Source: a virus
Direction: 5' to 3' (one strand)
Virus record (IMG/VR): IMGVR_UViG_3300011921_000003
Length of the DNA: 34,957 nt
The first letter of the stretch is position 1. Each line of letters opens with the position of its first letter. The notes below the pieces were generated by a model. The model was not told the origin of the DNA, ran no database searches, and saw only the letters and a list, made by a program, of their open reading frames with translations. The position numbers and the translations under genes are program-made. This document shows positions 9,828 to 34,957 of the stretch, piece after piece.

Positions 9828-10139
9828 ATGGCAACTGAAAAACAATCTAAGATTATCAAAGGCGGCAAAAGGGAAGGCGCTGGTAGACCTGTTGGTATTC
9901 CTAACAAAAGCACAACCAAAGCTAGAGAGGCTATAGCAGCCTTTGTAGACGGTAATGCTGACAAACTACAAGAATGGCTTGACCAAATTGCAACAGATGA
10001 ACGGTATGGCCCAAAGACAGCCTTTGATTGTTTTATGGCTGTTGCTGAATACCACGTTCCTAAACTTGCACGAACCGAACATACTGGCGCTAATGATGGC
10101 CCAATTGAACTGGTGGTCAAGTGGCAAGACGGGAAGTAG
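9828..10139 (+). CDS. terS: Terminase small subunit (putative)
   Basis: The N-terminal 'GGKREGAGRPVGIPNKSTTKAREAI' is a DNA-binding motif. The gene is immediately upstream of terL and overlaps it. The track start is the TTG at 9816, and I prefer the ATG at 9828. Confidence 0.55.
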   Translation: MATEKQSKIIKGGKREGAGRPVGIPNKSTTKAREAIAAFVDGNADKLQEWLDQIATDERYGPKTAFDCFMAVAEYHVPKLARTEHTGANDGPIELVVKWQDGK

Positions 10140-11458
10140 TCCTGCCATATAGTCCACGGGGTGCGTTCAAGCCATTCCACAACAGAACCGAACGTTGGGC
10201 TTGCCTTGTTGCACACCGACGAGCCGGCAAGACAGTCGCAGCCATTAACGACATTGTTCGGGCTGCGCTCATGTGCAAAAGCACAAACCCACTATTTGCT
10301 TACATTGCGCCGTACCGCAGCCAGGCTAAGTCTGTGGCTTGGGATTACCTTAAACACTTTGCAGCACCAGTTCTCGCATCAAGCAACGAGGCCGAACTGA
10401 CCATCGAGCTTATAACTGGCGGCAAGATACGCTTGTTTGGGGCTGACAACGCAGATGCTATGCGTGGGCTTGGCTTTGATGGCGTATTCATGGATGAGTA
10501 CGGTGACTTCAGGCCATCAGTTTGGGGTAACGTCATTCGACCTACATTGTCAGACAAGCAGGGTTGGGCTGTGTTCGCTGGCACACCAAAAGGAAAAAAC
10601 CAATTTTGGCAGATATTTGAGCAAGCTAAACGAACGCCTGACGAGTGGTTTCATCTTGTTTTAAAGGCTAGTGAGTCTGGTCTGCTACCTGACACAGAGC
10701 TACGGGCAGCTGCCGCACAGATCAGCGATGACCAGTTCTTACAAGAGTATGAGTGTTCATTTGAGGCAGCTATCCTTGGCGCTTTTTATGGCGAGGACAT
10801 ACGCAAGATCACAGATGCCGGTCAAGTTAGGCGTGTTGATTACGATCCGCACCTACCGACTTACACTAGTTGGGATTTGGGCTATCGAGATGACACGGCT
10901 ATTTGGTGGTATCAAGTCGTGCGTAACGAAATCCATATCATTGATTATTTTGCAATAAGTGGTGCAAACATTGCAGAAATAGCTAAAATAGTCGTAGAAA
11001 AGCCGTATAAATACGCAAAACATTACCTACCCCATGATGCAAGGGCAAAAACTCTAGCAGCAGCGGGTAAGTCAGTTATTGAGCAATTGAGTGAGTATTT
11101 AGGTATTAACAACATGGCGATTGTGCCTGATTTGTCGGTGCAAGATGGGATTCAGGCGGTCAGACAGATGCTGCCAATGTGTTGGTTTGATAGCGAACGA
11201 ACGCATGATGGGCTAGAGGCTTTACGGCAATATCAACGTGAATACGACGAGGACAAGAAGGCATTTAGGCAAACACCCAGGCATGATTGGACAAGCCACC
11301 CAGCAGATGCGTTCCGAATGTTGGCAATTGCGTGGAGGCTAGAGCCAAAGGTTAAGCAGCCAGATGTTGTTAAACCATTGATTGTCGGGCCTGAGAACAC
11401 AGTTACTTTAAATGATATGTGGGCAACCCACACCACTAACCGGAGTAGAAGATTATGA
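10121..11458 (+). CDS. terL: Terminase large subunit
   Basis: 445 aa. It has a Walker A-like 'AHRRAGKT' and a Walker B-like 'DGVFMDEYGDF', followed by a C-terminal nuclease-type region with conserved acidic residues ('SWDLGYRDDTA', 'HYLPHDA'). It has a GTG start overlapping terS. Confidence 0.85.
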   Translation: MARREVVLPYSPRGAFKPFHNRTERWACLVAHRRAGKTVAAINDIVRAALMCKSTNPLFAYIAPYRSQAKSVAWDYLKHFAAPVLASSNEAELTIELITGGKIRLFGADNADAMRGLGFDGVFMDEYGDFRPSVWGNVIRPTLSDKQGWAVFAGTPKGKNQFWQIFEQAKRTPDEWFHLVLKASESGLLPDTELRAAAAQISDDQFLQEYECSFEAAILGAFYGEDIRKITDAGQVRRVDYDPHLPTYTSWDLGYRDDTAIWWYQVVRNEIHIIDYFAISGANIAEIAKIVVEKPYKYAKHYLPHDARAKTLAAAGKSVIEQLSEYLGINNMAIVPDLSVQDGIQAVRQMLPMCWFDSERTHDGLEALRQYQREYDEDKKAFRQTPRHDWTSHPADAFRMLAIAWRLEPKVKQPDVVKPLIVGPENTVTLNDMWATHTTNRSRRL

Positions 11459-11766
11459 GCGGTATTCAACATCCATACGAGTATCAATACGAACACGTTG
11501 CGGTAAGTCAGACAGCACAAGTGTTAGGTGGCACAGGCGCAGTTGGTGATTACTTACACAGATTGATTTGCACTGTGTCTACTGCTCTTACAGGTAACGT
11601 AATTTTGTTAGATGGTGCATTTTCACACACGATTTTGCCAGTGTCAGCTGGAACAGGCGCAAACGTTTACAACATTGAAGTAAACGCTATTTCTCGTAGC
11701 GGGCCGTGGAAAATCACAACTGGCGCAGGCGTAGAAGTAATAGCTGTTGGCATTTTCAGCGCATGA
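11455..11766 (+). CDS. Small beta-rich protein (103 aa), distant paralog of 18651..19013
   Basis: It shares 'TAQV(L/I)xGxGAVG' near the N-terminus and 'W(K/V)(I/T)(T/I)TGA' near the C-terminus with the 18651 protein. It has ATGA overlaps on both sides. Confidence 0.6.
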   Translation: MSGIQHPYEYQYEHVAVSQTAQVLGGTGAVGDYLHRLICTVSTALTGNVILLDGAFSHTILPVSAGTGANVYNIEVNAISRSGPWKITTGAGVEVIAVGIFSA

Positions 11767-12353
11767 TCGTAGCGAGCGTATTGCGGTCAGGCGGTGATTT
11801 TAAGCCTGAACACGTTTATGCGTTGCAAAAGATGTGCGCTAAGTATTTGCCACCGCATGAGTTTGTGTGTCTGTCGGACGTTGAGTTGGAGTGCAAAACC
11901 ATTCCTTTGATGCATGACTGGGTTGGTTGGTGGGCAAAGATGGAATTGTTCAGGCTACCAAGTGCGCTGTATTTTGATCTCGACACAATGCTGACTGGTG
12001 ACTGTACGGCAATGATTGAAGCGGCAAAGCAGCACGATTTTGTAATTATGCGTGACGTTTATCGGGGTAAATACAACCCGAAAGCCATGCAAAGTAGCAT
12101 GATGTACTGGTCTAAGCCTGTTGATTTGTACGACAAGTTTGCAGCATTACAAATGTACGCAGCGGGTGGTGACCAGTCTTACATTGAACACTTTATGCGG
12201 GACAAAGTTACGTACTGGCAAGACATTGCAGACGGTATCGTGAGTTTTAAGGCTGATGTGCTACCAAACGGGTTAGAAGATGCCAAGGTAGTGATCTTTC
12301 ATGGTCATCCGAGGCCGTGGGAACAGACCAGAATCAAGTATTTAGAGGATTAA
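11763..12353 (+). CDS. GT-A-fold glycosyltransferase-like protein (196 aa)
   Basis: It has the N-terminal strand 'MIVASVLRSGGDF', a DXD motif after a hydrophobic strand ('SALYFDLDTML') and a 'GGDQSYI' block. This pattern is seen in phage nucleotide-sugar transferases. The start is the ATG at 11763 (ATGA overlap), not 11706. Confidence 0.45.
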   Translation: MIVASVLRSGGDFKPEHVYALQKMCAKYLPPHEFVCLSDVELECKTIPLMHDWVGWWAKMELFRLPSALYFDLDTMLTGDCTAMIEAAKQHDFVIMRDVYRGKYNPKAMQSSMMYWSKPVDLYDKFAALQMYAAGGDQSYIEHFMRDKVTYWQDIADGIVSFKADVLPNGLEDAKVVIFHGHPRPWEQTRIKYLED

Positions 12354-14700: not shown

Positions 14701-15056
14701 ACGGTTACTGGGACACCGGAACATGGGACGATGCGACATGGGATTATGTGCCTGTCATCGTCGAGATGGATATGCACGATGGCGGTAAACGCAAGAAAGA
14801 GGAAGAAGAACACCGCAGGGCAGAAGCAGCAAAGGCAAAAGCAAGGCGAGATGAGGTTTTAGCGTTATTTGAGCAAATAGTAGAGGGTAAACCAAGGATT
14901 GCAGAGGAAATTGCAGAACCGTTTGTTATTGAGGCCACAGCCCAAGCGCCGGCGGTAATCAATTACGATGCAATGTTGGCTGATTTAGATCGTGTAAACC
15001 GGATTTACAACGAACACATAGAAATGGATGATGAGGACGTTATAGCTCTGTTATGA
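14697..15056 (+). CDS. Hypothetical head-module protein (119 aa)
   Basis: ATGA overlap with the portal gene. It has a W/D-rich N-terminus, a charged helix and an acidic C-terminus. Confidence 0.6.
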   Translation: MNGYWDTGTWDDATWDYVPVIVEMDMHDGGKRKKEEEEHRRAEAAKAKARRDEVLALFEQIVEGKPRIAEEIAEPFVIEATAQAPAVINYDAMLADLDRVNRIYNEHIEMDDEDVIALL

Positions 15057-15373
15057 AAAAAACTTACATATACGTTAATGGCGAATTAGTCGAAAAAGGC
15101 TCAAAAGAGCATTACGAGAGCCTTGGCCCAATGGTAATGCCAGACATTCAACCCTACAAATCCATGATCGATGGGTCGATGATTACGAGCCGGTCTGTCC
15201 ATCGTGACCATTTACGACAACATGGTTGCATTGAAGTTGGCAATGAGAAGATGGAAACCAAGTTGCCACCACCAAAAGACACACGCAGGGAAGTTATGCG
15301 GCAGCAGTTGGCAAACATGACGCATAAACAGGCAAATCAAGTTCTTTCACAACTACGCCGTAAATTTACCTAA
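15053..15373 (+). CDS. Hypothetical head-module protein (106 aa)
   Basis: ATGA overlap with the previous gene. It lies between the portal and scaffold genes. Confidence 0.6.
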   Translation: MKKTYIYVNGELVEKGSKEHYESLGPMVMPDIQPYKSMIDGSMITSRSVHRDHLRQHGCIEVGNEKMETKLPPPKDTRREVMRQQLANMTHKQANQVLSQLRRKFT

Positions 15374-15379
15374 AGGGGT

Positions 15380-16300
15380 ATGCAATTGGAAAATACTGAA
15401 CAGCCAGATCGTCGAGAATTACTGTCACAGCAGTTCGATGAGGTTCAGAATGAAGCACCAGTCGAGGCAGTAAGGACGCAGGAACAACCTAATCTTGAGC
15501 CACCGGCAGAGCCACCAGTTTGGGAAAGACCGCCAGCATCGTGGAAGAAGGATTATCACGAAGCCTGGACAACTGCTGATCCAAAGCTAAAAGAATATGC
15601 TTGGAAACGTGAAGAAGAAATGAAAGCAGGGGTTCAGCCTTTGCTGTCAAAAGCCCAATTTGCCGATCAAATGCAGCAGGCCATTGAGCCTTATATGCAG
15701 AACATTCGTGGGCTTGGCATTGAAGCACCGCAAGCGGTTAAAGCCTTGATGGAGGCCGACAACGTATTGCGTCACGGCTCACCACAACAAAAACAAGCAT
15801 ATTTTGCCCAATTAGCCCAACAATATGGGATCAATATGGGCGAGGTGCAGATTCAACCAACTGATCCTAATTTTTACGCCATTCAAAACGAGCTTGCACA
15901 AGTTCGTGGCGAGGTGTTAAATTGGAAGCAACAGCAGGAAGCGGCACAGAATCAAGCGCTTTTGAATGAAATTAGTGAATTTCAGACAAAAGCAGAGTAT
16001 TTTGAAGAAGCACGTCCAACAATGATCCAACTGCTTAACAGCGGTGTGGCGAAGGACTTGGATGATGCGTATCAAAAAGCAATACGCCTAGATAACGACC
16101 TGTTTACAAAACATCAGCAAGCCTCACAGGGTCAAGCAGATGCAGCGAAACGGGAAGCATCGAACAGAGCGGCGAAAGCAGCTAGGGCGGCAGCGGTCAG
16201 CGTTAAAAGTTCCACACCAGGGGCGGCAACGGCAACCAAAGCGCAAGATAGGCGTTCATTATTGATGGAACAGTTTGACAATCTTAATGAGCGTTTTTGA
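15380..16300 (+). CDS. Scaffolding protein (putative)
   Basis: 306 aa, rich in Q/E/A and predicted helical. It lies immediately upstream of the major capsid gene. Confidence 0.5.
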   Translation: MQLENTEQPDRRELLSQQFDEVQNEAPVEAVRTQEQPNLEPPAEPPVWERPPASWKKDYHEAWTTADPKLKEYAWKREEEMKAGVQPLLSKAQFADQMQQAIEPYMQNIRGLGIEAPQAVKALMEADNVLRHGSPQQKQAYFAQLAQQYGINMGEVQIQPTDPNFYAIQNELAQVRGEVLNWKQQQEAAQNQALLNEISEFQTKAEYFEEARPTMIQLLNSGVAKDLDDAYQKAIRLDNDLFTKHQQASQGQADAAKREASNRAAKAARAAAVSVKSSTPGAATATKAQDRRSLLMEQFDNLNERF

Positions 16301-16320
16301 TAACCTAATCGGAGATTACT

Positions 16321-17322
16321 ATGGCATTTGCCAATAGCTCGATCAGCGACATCATTGCGACTAACATTCAAAGCCGCACGGGTGAACTTGCTGACAACGT
16401 AACAAATAACAACGCTTTACTGCGCCGTTTGAAAGAACGTGGCAACGTAAAGACGTTTTCTGGCGGTAACGTGATTTTGCAAGAGATCATGTATAACGAC
16501 AGCGCAACAGACAACACTAACTCGTATTCGGGTTACGAAGTCTTGAACGTTAGTCAAAACAGCCCAATTTCTGCTGCTCAATTCTCGATCACTCAGTATG
16601 CTGCTGCAATTTCAATCAGCGGCTTGGAAATGATCCAAAACAGCGGAAAAGAAGCAATCATCGACTTGCTAGATGGTCGTATGTCTGTTGCTGAGGCACA
16701 ATTGGCTAACCGTATTTCGCAAGATATTTATCTTGACGGTACTGGTAACTCAGGCAAGAACATCACAGGCCTCGGCGCTGCTGTTCCTGACGCACCCACA
16801 ACCGGCACTTACGGTGGCATCAATCGTGCAACTTTCACGTTTTGGCAATCTGTTGCCTACTCAGGCGTGACTAACGGCGGCTCTGCTGTTTCGGCATCGA
16901 ACATCCAGTCTTACATGGACGCTCTTGCTGTTCAGTTGATTCGTGGAACAGACAAACCTGATCTGATCGTTTGCGACAACAACTATTACAAGTTGTATTT
17001 GCAATCGTTGCAATCAATCCAACGCATCACAGACGGCGGCAATTCGTCAGCTGGCGCAGGCTTTGCATCGTTGAAATACTACGGCGCTGGCATGGCATCA
17101 GATGTGATCTTAGACGGTGGTATCGGTAACGATGCAACTGCCAATCATATGTGGTTCTTGAACACGAAATACATTATGTTCCGTCCACACGCTGACCGTA
17201 ATTTCGTGCCAATCGGCGGCGAGCGTCAAGCAGTTAACCAAGACGCAATCGTTAAGCTCATCGGATTTGCCGGCAACCTCACTTCTTCAGGCCCGCAATT
17301 CTGCGGCGTTCTGATCGCTTAA
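16321..17322 (+). CDS. Major capsid protein
   Basis: 333 aa with a strong 'ggag' SD. Its position is right for a capsid gene. The N-terminus 'ADNVTNNNALLRRLKERGNVKTFSGG' and 'TGTYGGINRATFTFWQ' resemble BPP-1/epsilon15-type podovirus capsid proteins, from memory. Confidence 0.75.
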   Translation: MAFANSSISDIIATNIQSRTGELADNVTNNNALLRRLKERGNVKTFSGGNVILQEIMYNDSATDNTNSYSGYEVLNVSQNSPISAAQFSITQYAAAISISGLEMIQNSGKEAIIDLLDGRMSVAEAQLANRISQDIYLDGTGNSGKNITGLGAAVPDAPTTGTYGGINRATFTFWQSVAYSGVTNGGSAVSASNIQSYMDALAVQLIRGTDKPDLIVCDNNYYKLYLQSLQSIQRITDGGNSSAGAGFASLKYYGAGMASDVILDGGIGNDATANHMWFLNTKYIMFRPHADRNFVPIGGERQAVNQDAIVKLIGFAGNLTSSGPQFCGVLIA

Positions 17323-17333
17323 AGGAAACCATC

Positions 17334-17867
17334 ATGGCATATACATTCGACGAACCACGTTTGGGACTTCAGCAAATTGCTCAAGTCAACGACACAGTAG
17401 TGACAGCTGGCGGTACAACTATCGTTGCGCCACCGGCAGTTTTAGGCAGTATTGTTCGTGCATTTGATCCAGTTTACGGCGAGGGTGAGTTCATCCTGCT
17501 GTTAGGCGTGGCATCAACTGTTGTTGGTTCTGTTGTGCGCTACAACGCTACAACTTACCAAACAACTTTGGTTGTCAACACCGCCGTTCAAGACGTGCCT
17601 GTTGCAGTCGCTATGGCGGCTTGCACAGCGGGTCAATACGGTTGGTATCAAATTGCTGGTAATGCAGTCATCAAGAAAACTGCTGTGACCGTTGCACCTA
17701 ACGTCACTCTGTTCTTGTCGGCTACAGCCGGTCGTGTAAAAGTCTTGGCATCTGCCGGCTTGCAAGTTGTTGCTGCTCGTTCAGCCAACCTGACAACCGT
17801 CACTTCTACGACTTCAACCATTACCGTGACAATCAACCGTCCACATCTCCAGTCACAGATCACCTAA
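17334..17867 (+). CDS. Capsid decoration/cement protein (putative, DUF2190-like) with a Ser/Thr-rich C-terminal tail
   Basis: 177 aa, rich in V/A/T/G beta-type sequence, directly after the capsid gene. The C-terminus reads 'ANLTTVTSTTSTITVTINRP'. Confidence 0.4.
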   Translation: MAYTFDEPRLGLQQIAQVNDTVVTAGGTTIVAPPAVLGSIVRAFDPVYGEGEFILLLGVASTVVGSVVRYNATTYQTTLVVNTAVQDVPVAVAMAACTAGQYGWYQIAGNAVIKKTAVTVAPNVTLFLSATAGRVKVLASAGLQVVAARSANLTTVTSTTSTITVTINRPHLQSQIT

Positions 17868-18635
17868 ATGATTGAAGCTGTACTTGATGTTGTAGGGAAC
17901 ACAGAGCCTGACGTTTTGTTGGGCAATGTGCAGCGATCCGTAAAAAGGTCGCTGCCTTGGTTTGATTTTGACGAGTCACCCCAGGGCAGCGTCTGTCTTG
18001 TTGGTGGTGGGCCAAGTCTGGTTGACACGATTGACCAGTTAAAAGCCCGTCATCAAAACGGCGCAAAAGTATGGGCAATGAACGGCTCTTACGATCATTT
18101 GCAAAGCCAAGGCATTATCCCTGACGTAATGGTAATGCTTGACGCTAGACCAGAGAACGTGAGATTTGTTCAGAATCCACAGCAATTGACTACGTTTTAC
18201 ATTACTAGCCAATGCGACGATGCAGTATTTGATGCGTTGGAAGGTTACAAAGTGGTGCTAGTTCACGCCAATACGCCTGGCGTTTATGAGTTGCTTGAGC
18301 ATGAAAAGGCTCGACCAGTTCACCTGATGGGCGGGTTTACAACTGTTGGCATCTTGTCGTTGATATTGGCTAAGTTGCAAGGGTTTCAGCGTATCTTTAT
18401 GTTTGGCATGGATTCAAGCTACCGAAATGGCGAACACCATGCTTACAAACAAGAAAGTAATGACGCAGAACGTGTAATTGACGCTATGATTAACGATGTG
18501 ACGTACAAGTGTGCGCCGTGGATGGCACAACAAGTTACAGATTTTCAGAATGTCGTAGCAGGCTTTGGTGATGTTACGATTGAAGTATGTGGCGATGGAC
18601 TTTTGCACGAAATGGCAAAAGCGATGAGTAACTAA
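17868..18635 (+). CDS. MptE/Maf-like Rossmann-fold protein (DUF115 family)
   Basis: 255 aa. 'VCLVGGGPSLVDTIDQL' and 'GGFTTVGILSLILAKLQGFQRIFMFGMDSSY' fit the two conserved blocks of the DUF115 family (6-hydroxymethylpterin diphosphokinase MptE-like / motility accessory factor). Confidence 0.55.
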   Translation: MIEAVLDVVGNTEPDVLLGNVQRSVKRSLPWFDFDESPQGSVCLVGGGPSLVDTIDQLKARHQNGAKVWAMNGSYDHLQSQGIIPDVMVMLDARPENVRFVQNPQQLTTFYITSQCDDAVFDALEGYKVVLVHANTPGVYELLEHEKARPVHLMGGFTTVGILSLILAKLQGFQRIFMFGMDSSYRNGEHHAYKQESNDAERVIDAMINDVTYKCAPWMAQQVTDFQNVVAGFGDVTIEVCGDGLLHEMAKAMSN

Positions 18636-18650
18636 ACTTTAAGGATTATC

Positions 18651-19013
18651 ATGGCATTTCCATCTAGAATTATGGGCGCAGGCAATTCATCGTTAACTGC
18701 ACAAGTAATCTGTGGCGAAGGCGCTGTCGGCCTAGTCGCTACTGGCACAACCGCAGCAGATGCTTTGCAGCTAAACGTGTCAAACAACACGATCACAACT
18801 TCAGCAGCATCGACTGGCGTTAAGTTGCCACCTTGCGAAACTGGCGCTGAAATGATTATTCGTAATGATTCGGGTCAGACAATTACCGTCTATCCTTACA
18901 ATACAAGCACTACAATGAACGCAGCTGCCGCAAGTGTTTCGCTTGCAACGGCTAAAACAATGTTGGTAAAAGCAACTTCCGCAACTACATGGGTAACAAT
19001 CACAGGGGCTTAA
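18651..19013 (+). CDS. Small Ala/Ser/Thr-rich beta protein (120 aa), distant paralog of 11455..11766
   Basis: It shares the 'TAQVICGEGAVG' motif and the C-terminal 'WVTITGA' with the 11455 protein. By my count about 50 of its 120 residues are A, S or T. Confidence 0.6.
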   Translation: MAFPSRIMGAGNSSLTAQVICGEGAVGLVATGTTAADALQLNVSNNTITTSAASTGVKLPPCETGAEMIIRNDSGQTITVYPYNTSTTMNAAAASVSLATAKTMLVKATSATTWVTITGA

Positions 19014-19014
19014 A

Positions 19015-19551
19015 TTGGCTTTAGACAGCGATATTCACAGCGCAGACAACCATTTGCACGTTGAATTTTACGTTTACGACAAAGAACCGTATAAAGAAAA
19101 GCCGTTTGTTAGAATTACAGTACCAGGCGATAAAACAAACATTGTTGACCAACCCGTTCGGGAAGATCACAAAAGACGTTTTCCACGCCAATGGTTGCAC
19201 TTTCAGATGCAAAACAATAACGCAGAAGTTATTGGTGTGCCTCTGAGCCAATGGGTAAAAGACGATCCTGAAAACTTTAACGATATGCAGATGGCAGAAT
19301 TGCAAATCTTTAAGTTTCAGACCGTTGAGCAAGTTGCTACCGCTACCGACAACCAATTGCAGCGTGTTGGCATGGGTGCGGCAGGCTTGCGAGAGTTGGC
19401 AAGGCGTTATTTGCAAGTTAAAAACCAATCTTCAAGCCAGACTGAGATTGAAAACACTAAGCAGGAACTTGCTCTAGTAAAAGAGCAAATGGCGGCTTTG
19501 ATGGCTCAGTTGCAGGAAAAGAAGGTTGGGAGGCCAAAAAAAGAGGAATAA
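19015..19551 (+). CDS. Hypothetical virion-module protein (178 aa)
   Basis: TTG start with 'agggg' 6 nt upstream, and there is no in-frame ATG for about 60 codons. The C-terminus is a helical, charged tail. Confidence 0.55.
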   Translation: MALDSDIHSADNHLHVEFYVYDKEPYKEKPFVRITVPGDKTNIVDQPVREDHKRRFPRQWLHFQMQNNNAEVIGVPLSQWVKDDPENFNDMQMAELQIFKFQTVEQVATATDNQLQRVGMGAAGLRELARRYLQVKNQSSSQTEIENTKQELALVKEQMAALMAQLQEKKVGRPKKEE

Positions 19552-20460
19552 ATGTCATCAACGATGCTACAGCTAGTCACCCAAGTTACCAATGAATTGG
19601 GTGTATCAACGCCAACTACTGTGGCATCGAATACGAACCAAGATGTAATTCAAATCTTGGCGTTGATGAACGCTGCCGGTTATGAGTTCTTGCGAAAGCA
19701 TGACTGGCGAGAATTAACCAAACAGCACACGTTTACTACCGTTTTTAACGTAACGACTGGTGATGTGGTTGAAAACACATACACAATTACCGGCATCCCA
19801 TCGACTGCTGGGCTTGATACAACGTATCAGGTTGTGGGTAATGGTATCTCAAATGCGGCTTACATTGAATCAGTTGACTCAGCTACGCAAGTAACGATCA
19901 ACTTACCCGCTACAGGGACGTATTTGGGCACGTCAATCACTTTTGAAAAGGTCAAGTACGATCTACCCACAGATTACGAATCAACCGTTCCTAGAACCCA
20001 TTGGGACAAATCAAAACATTGGGAAATGCTTGGGCCTGAAAGTCCACAGCAATGGGAATGGTTGTTATCGGGGTTTATCGCTACTGGCCCACGGATTCGC
20101 TGGCGTTTGTTGGGTAAATACTTTCAGATTTGGCCTGGCGTTTCGACTAACGAGTTGTTGGGCTACGAGTATCGGTCAAAAGGTTGGGCATTATCTGACA
20201 CGGGAACAGTAAAAAATTCATTTACTGCCGACACAGATACCTGTATTTACCCAGATCGACTGATGGTATTGGCTACAAAGCTCAAGTATTTCGAGGCTAA
20301 AGGCTTTGATACTACAGCGATGTATCGCAACTATATCGAGGAGTTTGAGATTGTTCGGGCGCAGGATACGTCAGCGGCTAACTTGTCGTTTGCACCACGC
20401 CCAGGCACAGTCTTGATTGGCTACGACAACATTCCTGACACCGGCTACGGGACAAACTAA
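19552..20460 (+). CDS. Virion structural protein (302 aa, putative adaptor or tail component)
   Basis: The call rests on position in the structural block and a TAAATG junction with the previous gene. I recognised no specific motif. Confidence 0.55.
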   Translation: MSSTMLQLVTQVTNELGVSTPTTVASNTNQDVIQILALMNAAGYEFLRKHDWRELTKQHTFTTVFNVTTGDVVENTYTITGIPSTAGLDTTYQVVGNGISNAAYIESVDSATQVTINLPATGTYLGTSITFEKVKYDLPTDYESTVPRTHWDKSKHWEMLGPESPQQWEWLLSGFIATGPRIRWRLLGKYFQIWPGVSTNELLGYEYRSKGWALSDTGTVKNSFTADTDTCIYPDRLMVLATKLKYFEAKGFDTTAMYRNYIEEFEIVRAQDTSAANLSFAPRPGTVLIGYDNIPDTGYGTN

Positions 20461-21989
20461 TGGCAAGCCGACTTGTTCAAGGTACGGCGGCACGGGTTCA
20501 GTCATTACCAGCGCCTATCGGTGGTTGGAACGTGCGAGATTCCATTGCAAACATGGATACGCTCGATGCCGTTCAATTAACCAATTTGTTCCCCACAGTC
20601 AATAATGTAGTTTTGCGTGGTGGATATACAAAATATTCCACCGGCATCACGGGTCAAGTTCAGACTTTGATGGGCTATTCAAGCGGTGCAACTGACGAAT
20701 TGTTTGCAATTGCAGGAACGTCGATTTACGACTGTACTGCTGGCGGTGCGGTTGGCGCAGCGGTCAAAACGGGCTTGAGTAACGCAAAGTGGGAATACAC
20801 AAACGTTACAACGCCTGCCGGCGGTTATCTGTATTTAGTCAATGGCGTAGATGCGCCATTACTGTATAACGGGTCAACTTGGACAAATCCAACCATTACT
20901 GGCGTAACGGCAAGCAGTTTAAGCAACATTGCCATTTTTAAAAACCAAGTTTGGTTTACGCAAAATGCAAGTTTAAAAGCATGGTATTTGCCGACTTTGA
21001 GCATTTCAGGCGCAGCTGCTGCAATTGACATGAGTTCGGTTGCCCAACTTGGTGGATTCTTGGTTGCCGTGGGAACGTGGACAATTGATGCAGGCTACGG
21101 CGTAGACGATAACTTAGTGTTTATAACGTCCAATGGCGAGGTTATTGTTTGGGCGGGTACTGATCCCTCGGACGCTACGAAATGGGCGCTAGTGGGCGTT
21201 TGGAGGGTTGGCAAACCCGTTGGTAAGCGATGCTTACTAAAGTACGGCGGCGATATGCTGATGCTGACTTATAACGGACTGTATCCACTTGCCGCAAGCC
21301 TGCAATCATCTAGACTTGATCCCCGTGTTGCGCTGTCGGATAAGATTCAAGGTGCATTTACTGCTGCAACGCAAACGTATGGCAGTAATTTTGGGTGGGA
21401 CATTATGTTCGACCCACAGCACAACGCTTTGACGGTCAATGTGCCAGTCGCTGAAGGCCAACAACAGCAGTATGTGATGAATAACATCACAAAAGCCTGG
21501 TGCAACTTCACAGGCCAGTACGCTAATTGTTGGGCTATCTTTGACAACGAGCCGTATTGGGGTGGCAATGGCTTTGTTGCCCATGCGTGGGATGACAATT
21601 ACGCTGATGATACAAGCGACATAAACGGCTATGCGTTGCAAGCGTTTAATTATTTTGATGCCCGTGGGTACAAAAAGTATTTCACTAGAGCTAGACCGTC
21701 GATCTTTACTAACGGCACACCGTCAATATTCATTGGTTTAAACATGGATTTTGATTTAGCAGACACGACTGCGGCGCTAAGTTTTAGCCCACAAGTATCT
21801 GCTAAATGGGACGTTGCGTTGTGGGATGTTGGCTACTGGGCTACGGACACGGTCATCACAAACAATTGGCAAGGCGTAACTGGCATTGGTTATTGCGCTG
21901 CAACACAGTTTAAATCTGCCTCTCAAGGAACAACAATTCTATGGGCATCAACGGACATTGTTTACCAACAAGGTTGGGGTGGCATATAA
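20460..21989 (+). CDS. Virion structural protein (509 aa, putative tail tubular/nozzle component)
   Basis: TAATG overlap with the previous gene. It is a large beta-rich protein in the tail block of a genome with no tape-measure or tube genes. Confidence 0.55.
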   Translation: MASRLVQGTAARVQSLPAPIGGWNVRDSIANMDTLDAVQLTNLFPTVNNVVLRGGYTKYSTGITGQVQTLMGYSSGATDELFAIAGTSIYDCTAGGAVGAAVKTGLSNAKWEYTNVTTPAGGYLYLVNGVDAPLLYNGSTWTNPTITGVTASSLSNIAIFKNQVWFTQNASLKAWYLPTLSISGAAAAIDMSSVAQLGGFLVAVGTWTIDAGYGVDDNLVFITSNGEVIVWAGTDPSDATKWALVGVWRVGKPVGKRCLLKYGGDMLMLTYNGLYPLAASLQSSRLDPRVALSDKIQGAFTAATQTYGSNFGWDIMFDPQHNALTVNVPVAEGQQQQYVMNNITKAWCNFTGQYANCWAIFDNEPYWGGNGFVAHAWDDNYADDTSDINGYALQAFNYFDARGYKKYFTRARPSIFTNGTPSIFIGLNMDFDLADTTAALSFSPQVSAKWDVALWDVGYWATDTVITNNWQGVTGIGYCAATQFKSASQGTTILWASTDIVYQQGWGGI

Positions 21990-22387
21990 CCCAAGGCGTT
22001 GATGTAGGTCATTGGGTAGCAGAGCGAGTGCAGGGTAAGTATTTTGCAGACGGGTCGCAAGCAATTGGGTTAGAGCGTGACGGTCAAATTATTGCAGGCG
22101 TAATTTACGAGAATTGGAACAAAGCCTCGATTGTGTGCCACATAGCAATTGAAGGACGCATTACAAAAGGGTATTTAAAAGCAATATTTAGCTACCCTTT
22201 TGAGTTTTGTAAGGTAAAAAAGATTATTGTGCCGGTGAGCAGTACCCATGCAAAAAGCCTAAAATTAGTTACAAAGATGGGTTTTGTTGAAGAAGCAAGG
22301 GTAAAAGATGCAGCACCGGATGGCGATATTATATTTTTGACATTGGCACGGGAAAAGTGTCGGTTTCTAGGGGTTCAAAATGGGTAA
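21941..22387 (+). CDS. GNAT-family N-acetyltransferase (start uncertain)
   Basis: 'GQIIAGVIYENWNKASIVCHIAIEG...IIVPVSSTHAKSLKLVTKMGFVEEARVKDA' follows the GNAT core pattern. The ATG at 21941 overlaps the upstream gene by 49 nt, and the TTG at about 21974 is an alternative start. Confidence 0.6.
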   Translation: MGINGHCLPTRLGWHITQGVDVGHWVAERVQGKYFADGSQAIGLERDGQIIAGVIYENWNKASIVCHIAIEGRITKGYLKAIFSYPFEFCKVKKIIVPVSSTHAKSLKLVTKMGFVEEARVKDAAPDGDIIFLTLAREKCRFLGVQNG

Positions 22388-23642
22388 GTCGAGCGCAGCA
22401 CCACCAGCACCAGATTATATTGGCGCAGCCAAGCAGCAAGGTAAAGACAACCTTGAATCTGCTAGGCAGTCGAACATTATGGCTAATCCCAATATGTTTA
22501 CGCCATTTGGGAATCAAACTGTTTCTTACTCAAGCCCAACATTTGACCAGGCCTCGTATGATGCAGCGTTGGCTAAATACAACGCAGGCAACGTAGATCG
22601 TAATAGATATTACAGACCAGACGAACAAACTGGGCAAACATATTTTGACCAAGCAAGTTTTGATGCCGACAATGCAAAGCGAGGCGCTGCCCCAACCCGT
22701 GAAGGGTTTATGACTGGCGGCGGTCAACCAACTGTTACCCAAACTCTCACCCCACAAGCGCAGCAGACTTTAGAGTCGCAACAGCGGGTACAGACTGCAC
22801 TTGCAAATCTTGGTGAGGTTGGCATTGCAAATGCTTACGACACGCTGTCAAAGCCGTTCACACCAACATCAACTGATATTAAAAAAGATTTTGGTGGTTA
22901 TGGCGCTGTGCCATTGTCTGAAAACTTTACGTCTAAATCTGAAGTTCCGTTGCAATACAACATTGATGCAACCAACTTTTCTGAAATGCCATTAAATGCT
23001 GGGGTTAAAGCTCAAGATTTAATTTTGCAACGTCTTAACCCGACAATTGAAGCCGGCGATACGTCATTTAAACAAGCGTTAGCAAACCAAGGTTTAGCGC
23101 CAGGTACAGCTGCTTATGATGCGGCGTATCGTAACCGTGCAAATCAAATTAATGATTTGTACAACCAAGCGGCATTGTCAGGGATTAATCTAGACATGAC
23201 TGCTCGTAACCAACAATTGCAAGAAGAATTGGCAAAAGGAAATTTTGCTAATGCGGCACAATTGTCTGGTGCAGGGTTATACAACACGGCAATGGCTGAC
23301 AACTATGGTCGAGGCATGACCACCCAAGGCACTCAGTTTAGCCAAGGACTTAATAAGGCTCAATTTCAAAACACGGCACAACAACAACAACTGGCGCAAG
23401 ATTTGGCATTACGGGCGCAACCTATCAATGAGGTTATTGGACTTATGGGCGGCTCACAGATTCAGTTGCCACAGTTTCAGGGTTATCAGGGTACGTCAGT
23501 TGCACCAGCGCCAACATTTGCGGGTACACAAGCGCAAGGTCAGGCTGATATGTCACGGTACGGTATTCAGCAAGCAGGCGCTAATGCGGGTATTCAAGGC
23601 ATCACTAGTTTGGCATCAACTGCGGCAATGGCTTATTTCTAA
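22380..23642 (+). CDS. Internal virion/ejection-type protein (420 aa, Q/A/N-rich)
   Basis: The call rests on composition and position among the large proteins at the tail end of the structural block. Confidence 0.5.
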   Translation: MGKSSAAPPAPDYIGAAKQQGKDNLESARQSNIMANPNMFTPFGNQTVSYSSPTFDQASYDAALAKYNAGNVDRNRYYRPDEQTGQTYFDQASFDADNAKRGAAPTREGFMTGGGQPTVTQTLTPQAQQTLESQQRVQTALANLGEVGIANAYDTLSKPFTPTSTDIKKDFGGYGAVPLSENFTSKSEVPLQYNIDATNFSEMPLNAGVKAQDLILQRLNPTIEAGDTSFKQALANQGLAPGTAAYDAAYRNRANQINDLYNQAALSGINLDMTARNQQLQEELAKGNFANAAQLSGAGLYNTAMADNYGRGMTTQGTQFSQGLNKAQFQNTAQQQQLAQDLALRAQPINEVIGLMGGSQIQLPQFQGYQGTSVAPAPTFAGTQAQGQADMSRYGIQQAGANAGIQGITSLASTAAMAYF

Positions 23643-24334
23643 TGCTTGGATTAGCGTTCTCAGGCGGGAAAGATTCTTTAGCGTGTTGGTACTTGTACCG
23701 TGAAAAGAATCCCATCGTCTTTTGGGCAAATACTGGCAAGTCTTATCCTGAAACGATGGAAATCATTGAACAGGTAAAAGCAGAAGCAATTGAGTTTATT
23801 GAAGTTAAGTCAGATCAAGAACAGCAAATTAAGTTTTACGGCTATCCAAGCGATGTTGTGCCGGTTGACCATAGTCTTGAAGGTATGGTGTTTGCAGGCG
23901 ATAAGCCAGTACGAGTACAGAGTTATTTAAACTGTTGTTGGGCAAACGTAGGGCAACCTCTAACAGAGGCAATTGCAAAACGTGGAATTACGCATTTGAT
24001 TCGTGGGCAAAGGCTAGATGAAAGCCACAAATCCACGGCTCGGCACGGGTCGGTAGTGAATGGTGTGACGTACATTCAGCCGATAGAAACATGGACTAAA
24101 GAGCAAGTTTTGGCGTTTTTACGGACTCAGTGCCAGTTACCAGAACATTATGCAATCGATCACTCAAGCCTTGATTGTTACGATTGCACAGCGTATTTGG
24201 CGCACTCAACGGATCGAGTGGCATGGATGAAAGAAAAACACCCAAATTTGCATGAAAAATATAAAATAAACATGGCGGCACTAAAGTCTGCCTTGTTGCC
24301 TACTTTAGAGTTATTAAGGAATTGCGATGCTTAA
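23642..24334 (+). CDS. PP-loop ATP-pyrophosphatase, PAPS-reductase-like protein
   Basis: 230 aa. The N-terminal 'LAFSGGKDSLA' is the SGGxDS PP-loop motif. There is a C-terminal Cys pair, 'LDCYDCTAY'. TAATG overlap with the upstream gene. Confidence 0.6.
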   Translation: MLGLAFSGGKDSLACWYLYREKNPIVFWANTGKSYPETMEIIEQVKAEAIEFIEVKSDQEQQIKFYGYPSDVVPVDHSLEGMVFAGDKPVRVQSYLNCCWANVGQPLTEAIAKRGITHLIRGQRLDESHKSTARHGSVVNGVTYIQPIETWTKEQVLAFLRTQCQLPEHYAIDHSSLDCYDCTAYLAHSTDRVAWMKEKHPNLHEKYKINMAALKSALLPTLELLRNCDA

Positions 24335-34822: not shown

Positions 34823-34912
34823 AAAAAAGCCGCTTAAATCTATATATTGGTTGCAGAACATCTTTTTTAAGGATGTCACCCCGAAGGGTCAATATATAGA
34901 TTTAAACGGCTT
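34823..34912 (-). terminator. Large structured terminator-like element on the minus strand: a 23-bp stem enclosing two small hairpins, followed by a U-tract
   Basis: The arms at 34827..34849 and 34890..34912 are reverse complements with one mismatch. That mismatch is a G-U pair only in the minus-strand RNA. The inner hairpin at 34878..34889 is ACCC-UUCG-GGGU on the minus strand, and a second inner hairpin lies at 3457+34800..34877 region (34857..34877). The minus-strand 3' side continues 'cggcuuuuuug'. The element is about 125 nt downstream of the cro-like stop, across the circular junction. Confidence 0.55.
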
Positions 34913-34957
34913 AATTATCTGCAACGATAACGATTCAATTCTGCCACCGTCTTTCCG
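34880..34957. repeat. 78-bp terminal direct repeat, copy 2 (identical to 1..78)
   Basis: Exact identity with the window start. Confidence 0.95.

Follow-up and report, generated by a model that had tools for sequence, protein, structure and literature searches.

Two kinds of described systems are the closest to the one considered here. The first is represented by the Maf enzymes, which O-glycosylate flagellin with nonulosonic acids and of which Maf-1 and Maf-2 depend on a TPR domain or on the protein GlfM for flagellin binding. The second is the virion glycosylation of mycobacteriophages, which is established at the C-termini of capsid and tail-tube proteins (Freeman 2023, as cited in PMC12619734). 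The present work deals with the virus record IMGVR_UViG_3300011921_000003, all 34,957 nucleotides of which are hereafter referred to as the window, and in particular with the gene located right after its major capsid protein (MCP) and decoration protein genes, coding for a 255-amino acid (aa) protein of the DUF115 family. A sequence-only reading of this DNA had proposed that the protein is a Maf-like enzyme glycosylating virion proteins. The enzyme and the decoration protein are inherited together in many related phages, which suggests that these phages sugar-coat their heads. The window represents a complete circularly assembled genome of about 34.9 kb, the two ends of which overlap exactly over 78 bp (1-78 versus 34880-34957), and the features needed first are the following:

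16321..17322, plus strand: MCP, 333 aa, part of the structural backbone (phrog_9953, 6e-103)
17334..17654, plus strand: decoration protein (second major virion protein), N-terminal domain, residues 1-107 (phrog_29386), common to the short forms of about 98 aa
17655..17867, plus strand: decoration protein, C-terminal domain of about 70 aa, residues 108-177, stop codon included, the proposed acceptor
17868..18635, plus strand: minimal single-domain DUF115/MAF_flag10 (Maf-like) enzyme, 255 aa (PF01973, 6e-21)
18651..19013, plus strand: Ala/Ser/Thr-rich protein of 120 aa, a variable-copy backbone gene not belonging to the enzyme cassette

All four open reading frames (ORFs) exist as they had been described. 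The two blocks on which the family assignment had been based, CLVGGGPSL and GGFTTVG...FMFGMDSSY, are both present in the 255-aa translation, and the hidden Markov model (HMM) search proposed at that time gave PF01973 (MptE-like, formerly DUF115) with E = 6e-21 and a score of 75.4 bits (cutoff 34.6); the alignment covers residues 39-187 of the protein and positions 25-170 of the 171-position profile. DUF115 is identical with the MAF_flag10 domain (bioRxiv 10.1101/2023.12.03.569772). Maf ranks first both by sequence and by fold, as had been expected. The top sequence match is the Magnetospirillum Maf flagellin glycosyltransferase 5MU5, found with E = 0.004 using the single sequence and with 6e-10 using a 35-sequence profile, and the second in the profile search is the archaeal pterin pyrophosphokinase MptE/HPPK (8SD5) with 8e-4 and an alignment ending at position 182. 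The alignment with 5MU5 extends across FGMDSSYRNGEHHAYKQ in the enzyme and FGVDLGSRNPKRHHSKQ in 5MU5, the two having a GxD...HH block in common, with D182 of the enzyme (FGMDSSY...HH) aligned with the Asp of FGVDLGS...HH in 5MU5. A conserved Asp of the MAF_flag10 domain is needed in Maf-1, Maf-2 and the M. magneticum Maf (bioRxiv 10.1101/2023.12.03.569772). Among 67 unique enzyme sequences, no variation is seen at S50, D92, G180 and D182. A role of H191, which belongs to the HHAY motif, as a universal catalytic His was considered and dropped.

The AlphaFold2 (AF2) model of the enzyme built from the alignment has a predicted local distance difference test score (pLDDT) of 90.5 and a predicted TM-score (pTM) of 0.89. 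When it was compared to the PDB with Foldseek, 5MU5 came first (7e-8, TM-score on the query (TMq) 0.66), HPPK second (1.5e-6, TMq 0.57), and these were followed by GT29 sialyltransferases. The only NCBIfam family matched by most family members is PseD (flagellin modification), found in 27 of 35, always far below the full-length cutoff, with the window enzyme scoring 27.5 bits versus a cutoff of 670. The enzyme aligns to residues ~269-449 only of the 666-residue 5MU5 chain, and the multi-domain Maf architecture is absent from its 255 aa, there being neither an N-terminal domain nor a C-terminal helical/TPR domain. Given this length and the partial alignment, the protein consists of the Maf-type catalytic domain and nothing else. 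In the family sense it cannot be called a Maf, as it has the catalytic domain in common with these enzymes and differs in both architecture and genomic context: Mafs are about 440-820 aa in length, no GlfM-like partner has been identified for the phage enzyme, its gene lies beside capsid genes, and no flagellar or nonulosonic-acid gene is found among the scanned ORFs of the 34.9-kb genome. It is quite likely to be a glycosyltransferase of the Maf type, whatever its acceptor.

With the enzyme profile, 1365 clusters (50% identity) are obtained at E<=1e-30 and 8940 at E<=0.001. Most of the matches listed are fusion proteins of 440-900 aa containing the whole 255-aa module, which is a self-contained unit. 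Five of the ten fusion proteins scanned had another recognised domain, each time a class I methyltransferase. One representative library protein, P0366 (769 aa), is a fusion of Methyltransf_23, a CTP-dependent riboflavin-kinase-like domain (PF01982) and DUF115, and one member of the enzyme alignment A1 shows a weak match to models of the Kdo transferase WaaZ (E = 0.003); these two observations may give clues to the chemistry of the nucleotide or donor. In UniProt and BFVD only automatic "MptE-like" names are found, on proteins of uncultured phages.

The archaeal 6-hydroxymethyl-7,8-dihydropterin pyrophosphokinase MptE resembles the phage enzyme in the Pfam family name, the Rossmann-type fold, the GxGPS loop and the Asp of "LD". 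The M. jannaschii HPPK being found by both Foldseek and profile, the joining of the DUF115 module to a riboflavin-kinase-like domain in P0366, and a methyltransferase rather than a sugar enzyme as the commonest partner in the ten fusions would all fit a protein which is not a glycosyltransferase but which, like MptE in archaea, transfers pyrophosphate, or else a group derived from a nucleotide, the acceptor being either a small molecule or a hydroxyl of the decoration protein. We find this unlikely, because the profile search favours Maf over HPPK by six orders of magnitude, the Maf alignment passes through the GxD...HH block while the HPPK alignment stops short of this His-rich stretch, and PseD is the sole NCBIfam family matched by most members. 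Besides, the phage enzyme has no pterin or folate context: its neighbours are capsid genes, and in relatives methyl-, formyl-, amino- and glycosyltransferases, with DegT, formyltransferase, FkbM and glycosyltransferase genes being typical of sugar tailoring.

To collect relatives with a neutral probe, 80 IMG/VR loci (designated L with a number) were chosen by MCP similarity alone (74-98% identity), and the 58 of them having a complete interval from the MCP to the p50-like and adaptor genes were scored with HMMs for the genes in between. The protein following the MCP occurs in relatives in two forms, a long one of about 157-184 aa, as in the window, and a short one of about 98 aa, equivalent to the first ~105 residues of the long form (hhalign probability 94.5%, E=8e-8; 9-103 versus 6-100). 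The enzyme is accompanied by the C-terminal domain of the long form in 34 loci, and both are absent in 22; two loci (L094 and L098) have the C-terminal domain only and none has the enzyme only (Fisher 5e-14, with phylogeny ignored). Loci of the two classes, with and without the enzyme, are intermingled over the whole range of MCP identity (74-98%), and no DUF115 gene was found hidden elsewhere in the enzyme-negative loci. The absence of the gene from close relatives with identical capsid proteins had been named beforehand as an observation which would speak against virion glycosylation. As regards the MCP such relatives do exist, since L027 and L029-31 (MCP 93-94%) carry no enzyme gene; but they lack the decoration C-terminal domain as well, and L028 (MCP 94%) has the long form together with the enzyme. 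The target is thus shifted from the MCP to the decoration protein, and the idea itself is not refuted.

Co-divergence was assessed as Spearman correlation of pairwise identities in 35 non-redundant loci having all the genes. The enzyme correlates with the decoration N-terminal domain at 0.74 and with its C-terminal domain at 0.71, in contrast to 0.38 with the MCP, 0.31 with the p50-like protein and 0.29 with the adaptor, whereas the latter three correlate mutually at 0.82-0.89 (MCP with p50-like 0.82, MCP with adaptor 0.89). The p50-like gene lies equally near the enzyme gene on the other side, yet it is only weakly correlated with it. The decoration protein and the enzyme are the fastest-diverging genes, with a mean identity of 0.43-0.47 compared to 0.85 for the MCP, and enzymes of 28-95% identity are found on capsids which are 81-98% identical. 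The pair consequently behaves as one unit, exchanged or evolving apart from the conserved structural backbone, so that the tie between enzyme and decoration protein turned out to be stronger than could have been seen from a single genome.

The order of MCP, decoration and enzyme genes, the conservation of which in relatives had been put forward as a check, is kept in 12 out of 12 contexts found via homologs of the enzyme or of the 120-aa protein. In each of them the DUF115 gene follows the MCP and decoration genes and precedes the p50-like and adaptor genes, and this position is constant down to 28-40% enzyme identity and about 50% MCP identity. What accompanies the DUF115 gene in this slot is variable. 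L007 and L104 have two tandem DUF115 genes, one with a methyltransferase fusion; in L010-12 a formyltransferase (Formyl_trans_N) and a DegT aminotransferase precede a DUF115 protein of 447 aa; in L013 an FkbM methyltransferase is located behind the DUF115 gene and a homolog of the window's phrog_1962 glycosyltransferase in front of it; L019-23 possess Methyltransf_24 or Methyltransf_23 fusions, a Methyltransf_25 fusion is also found among the slot enzymes of relatives, and L087 contains a methyltransferase and a weak GT8-like ORF. These extras are typical sugar-tailoring activities.

Two minor observations concern the same slot. At 6293-8208 of L010, and also in L011 and L012, the DegT ORF is 196 aa long and overlaps the ORF of the 447-aa DUF115 protein, the first ~220 residues of which have no Pfam match; this may be a split or frameshifted DegT-DUF115 fusion. 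In L013 (4621-8004), GIY-YIG, HNH_3/AP2 and LAGLIDADG-like ORFs are dispersed over that part of the capsid module which separates the short decoration gene from the DUF115 gene.

The 177-aa decoration protein matches phrog_29386 "virion structural protein" (4e-25), has 1878 homologs and is homologous to p49 of phage Mx8, annotated as a major virion structural protein; a PDB sequence search with the decoration profile gave no match. The C-terminal string quoted in the sequence-only reading is present in the protein but is not terminal, as eight more residues come after it and the protein ends in ...SANLTTVTSTTSTITVTINRPHLQSQIT. Ser and Thr account for 27% of the C-terminal domain in the window. 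In 55 unique long forms a Ser or Thr is kept at position T131 in 100%, at S129, S158 and S161 in 87%, and at T155 in 85%, and because they are kept as Ser/Thr across such divergent proteins these five are considered candidate acceptor residues. The stop codon TAA of the decoration gene abuts the ATG of the enzyme gene, and a promoter and terminator scan of 15000-20500 revealed no signal exceeding shuffled expectation; with the two genes abutting and no terminator above chance between them, the enzyme is made late, alongside the capsid proteins.

On this basis the following mechanism can be put forward. The decoration and DUF115 genes would constitute one swappable enzyme-substrate cassette within the late capsid operon. 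The decoration N-terminal domain, common to all relatives, would bind the capsid, and the enzyme would O-glycosylate Ser/Thr residues of the C-terminal domain in the cytoplasm, giving rise to a glycan-coated head. The proposed acceptor would resemble flagellin in being a surface protein which polymerises, occurs in many copies and receives its sugars on Ser/Thr while in the cytoplasm. The donor would be a host-made cytidine monophosphate (CMP)-activated ulosonic acid, that is pseudaminic, legionaminic or neuraminic acid, or 3-deoxy-D-manno-oct-2-ulosonic acid (Kdo). CMP-Kdo is present in any Gram-negative host. Maf enzymes are reported also to transfer N-acetylneuraminic acid (Neu5Ac) and Kdo to Ser/Thr (bioRxiv 10.1101/2020.06.03.131540). 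Relatives could tailor the sugar further by means of the fused or adjacent methyltransferases, the formyltransferase with the aminotransferase, and the extra glycosyltransferases. The mycobacteriophage system, like that of the window, has phage-encoded transferases close to the capsid genes, and its glycans reside on the C-terminal parts of abundant virion proteins. It differs in the enzyme family, in its Gram-positive actinobacterial hosts and siphovirus morphology, in the acceptor, which is the capsid or tail-tube subunit there and is predicted to be a separate decoration protein here, and in that its modification was shown by mass spectrometry and is predicted in our case.

Several points weigh against this mechanism. 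Glycosylation is a prediction. Mx8, L094 and L098 possess a long decoration protein and no enzyme, L013, which like Mx8 is outside the 58-locus set, has the enzyme with a short decoration protein, linkage alone makes adjacent genes co-inherited, and the association test does not take phylogeny into account. The Ser+Thr content of the C-terminal domain is not raised family-wide, being 0.22 compared to 0.20 in the N-terminal domain. The AF2 model of the decoration protein built from a 24-sequence alignment was unusable (pLDDT 47.9, with 24-36 in the C-terminal domain), so it lends no support to the presumed surface exposure. As for the enzyme, its fold also matches a pterin pyrophosphokinase, H191 is replaced by Lys or Arg in the most divergent (~28%-identity) subgroup, and a tblastn search with the window enzyme and the divergent P0094 and P0114 found no homolog in 50,697 phage records. 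No gene for nonulosonic-acid synthesis or activation was detected among the ORFs scanned against Pfam and PHROGs, including all those of at least 200 aa, and since the genome is complete the donor must come from the host. In view of all this, the chances that the cassette O-glycosylates the decoration protein with a host CMP-ulosonic acid seem to us evenly balanced.

The glycosyltransferase might also act off the virion, on host lipopolysaccharide or capsule, on flagellin or on another cell-surface glycan, as a superinfection-exclusion or serotype-conversion moron residing in the late operon. An acceptor-binding domain is missing at both its N- and its C-terminus, the phrog_1962 group of phage glycosyltransferases is classified under "moron, auxiliary metabolic gene and host takeover", and DUF115-type transferases can cap glycans instead of proteins, as described for Tannerella (PMC5420450). 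A moron of this kind would not explain what is found here, namely a slot fixed between the decoration and head-tail genes in every context seen, translational abutment to the decoration gene, and, among the 58 MCP-chosen loci, occurrence only with the long decoration form along with which the enzyme diverges; moreover, there is no integrase or lysogeny gene among the approximately 30 window proteins scanned, including all those of at least 200 aa. Action away from the virion is consequently a rather unlikely explanation compared to modification of the decoration protein.

The 120-aa protein had been considered a part of the glycosylation module. Its Ala/Ser/Thr richness, estimated at about 40%, is real (43%, with Ser+Thr making up 27%), and in many lineages its gene immediately follows that of the enzyme, so that it might be the main acceptor or, in a three-gene module, a specificity adaptor like GlfM, the small cis-encoded partner required by Maf-2. 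It also shows a modest co-occurrence with the enzyme in the 58 loci, both being found in 27, the 120-aa protein only in 9, the enzyme only in 7 and neither in 15 (p=0.002). However, its divergence follows that of the MCP, p50-like protein and adaptor (0.79-0.81) and not that of the enzyme (0.30), and L025 and L075 (MCP 97%, enzyme 92%) keep the enzyme with a 67-aa ORF in place of the 120-aa protein; GlfM, besides, is a predicted four-helix bundle. On the grounds of co-divergence and presence/absence the 120-aa protein was rejected as the enzyme's partner, and such a role is quite improbable. The family has 319 homologs, varies in copy number and includes long forms of 275 aa, and the protein may be another surface protein.

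The remaining part of the module proposed earlier is located upstream, where three more features have to be introduced:

10121-11458, plus strand: large terminase (TerL)
11455..11766, plus strand: conserved post-terminase protein of 103 aa, neither a paralog of the 120-aa protein nor linked to the transferase
11763..12353, plus strand: GT-A-like glycosyltransferase (phrog_1962, 5e-33), an occasional insert between TerL and portal

A sugar-transferase-like gene next to a supposed paralog of the 120-aa protein had been recognised within 11455..12353, and the transferase is borne out for 11763..12353, the product of which matches phrog_1962 "glycosyltransferase" and carries a DxD-like YFDLDT. No paralogy between the neighbouring 103-aa protein and the 120-aa protein could be detected, as BLASTP aligns 14 residues only (E=0.004 in a single comparison) and the hhalign probability for the two families is 0.1%. 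Nor is the supposed symmetry of a paralog beside a second transferase real, since the 103-aa gene is conserved after TerL in this phage group with or without a glycosyltransferase and follows TerL in many relatives having none. The phrog_1962 transferase occurs at the TerL-portal site in few relatives only, while the post-capsid slot of L013 holds a homolog of it (27% identity, E=4e-14) located two genes upstream of the DUF115 gene; it is possible, though the link is weak, that the 11763..12353 transferase performs a second step in the synthesis of the same glycan.

We know of no DUF115 or sialyltransferase-like enzyme acting on DNA. Hypermodification of phage DNA by the enzyme and its methyl-, formyl- and aminotransferase partners, which might be thought of since many phage glycosyltransferases target DNA (PMC12619734) and a PAPS-reductase-like gene is present in the window, is highly improbable for a gene which is located in the capsid operon, outside the replication module, and is linked to one structural protein.

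No literature was found linking DUF115, MptE-like or Maf proteins to phage capsids, and none of relevance connecting nonulosonic acids with phages or their capsids, in agreement with the earlier statement that no such description was known. It may tentatively be suggested, with chances somewhat below even, that the capsids of a large, hitherto uncultivated group of freshwater podophages carry sialic-acid-like or Kdo sugars, attached by a minimal Maf-type enzyme which is exchanged in one cassette with its own acceptor. If this is true, Maf-type protein glycosylation would for the first time be found on something other than flagella, and virion glycosylation for the first time in phages infecting Gram-negative hosts. 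Maf enzymes would acquire another natural class of acceptors, and the glycosylation of virions would not be limited to a few actinobacteriophages but would include a phage group abundant in the environment, the cassette diversity of which would play the part that O-antigen serotype variation has in bacteria. A protein sialyltransferase that is by nature no larger than about 255 aa, together with its small and defined acceptor domain, would in that case also be attractive for glyco-engineering. From the evolutionary point of view, the question arises why capsids that hardly differ carry in some phages a bare short decoration protein and in others a long one accompanied by a fast-evolving modification enzyme, with immune or defence evasion, stickiness and stability being possible answers.

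The window belongs to a freshwater podophage of the Mx8/SU10-adaptor type. Its late operon, transcribed from the plus strand, consists of genes coding for TerL, the 103-aa protein, the glycosyltransferase, portal, two small ORFs, scaffold and MCP, and continues with the 177-aa, 255-aa and 120-aa proteins, the p50-like protein, a 302-aa tail/adaptor protein, a 509-aa protein and a GNAT acetyltransferase. The terminase, portal, scaffold, MCP, second major virion protein, p50-like and adaptor order is like that of the Mx8 p48/p49 capsid pair joined to an SU10-type head-tail module. The MCP is 50-53% identical to those of Mx8, Stenotrophomonas phage BUCT555 and Bradyrhizobium phage ppBjS10J-1, the nearest cultured relatives by this protein (~50% identity), all without the enzyme gene, and shows weak profile matches to the cyanophage capsid proteins 6J3Q and 7F38. 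In Mx8 the MCP is 51% and the decoration protein 47% identical to those of the window, but despite the long decoration protein there is no DUF115 gene in the whole Mx8 genome. A megablast search of 16000-20500 against phages gave no match, and no family was found in the Rfam scan of the window. The window encodes a GH108 endolysin, which is consistent with a Gram-negative host. A scan of deposited GTDB genomes for homologs yielded a single match, L018 (SHZL01000022.1), a 17-kb contig in a Lysobacterales/Xanthomonadales metagenome-assembled genome from Lake Baikal with the same arrangement of MCP, decoration, DUF115 and 120-aa genes; it is probably a phage contig and gives a weak hint to the host.

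The MCP genes of five relatives are split by insertions of about 232-243 bp, located at 6946-7188 in L084, L086, L090 and L095 and at 6160-6391 in L087. Two sites are used, one after codon 309 and the other after codon 53, where the remainder of the gene is in a different frame. The insertions may be small introns, although Rfam found no family at gathering score in the five relatives. In L019 and L020, which come from two samples and have contigs of equal length (40141 bp), the MCP is encoded by three ORFs and by one 333-aa ORF, respectively, and the broken gene of L019 may be due to an insertion or may represent a variant, either of the assembly or of the population. Within the tail/structural module of the window there is a PAPS-reductase-domain gene at 23642-24334 (PF01507, 7.9e-15; phrog_424). 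The GNAT acyltransferase gene at 21941-22387 (phrog_4470, 1e-32) overlaps the 3′ end of the 509-aa protein gene and is found at the same place in BUCT555 and ppBjS10J-1, and owing to this conserved placement it is a second potential protein-modifying enzyme of the structural operon.

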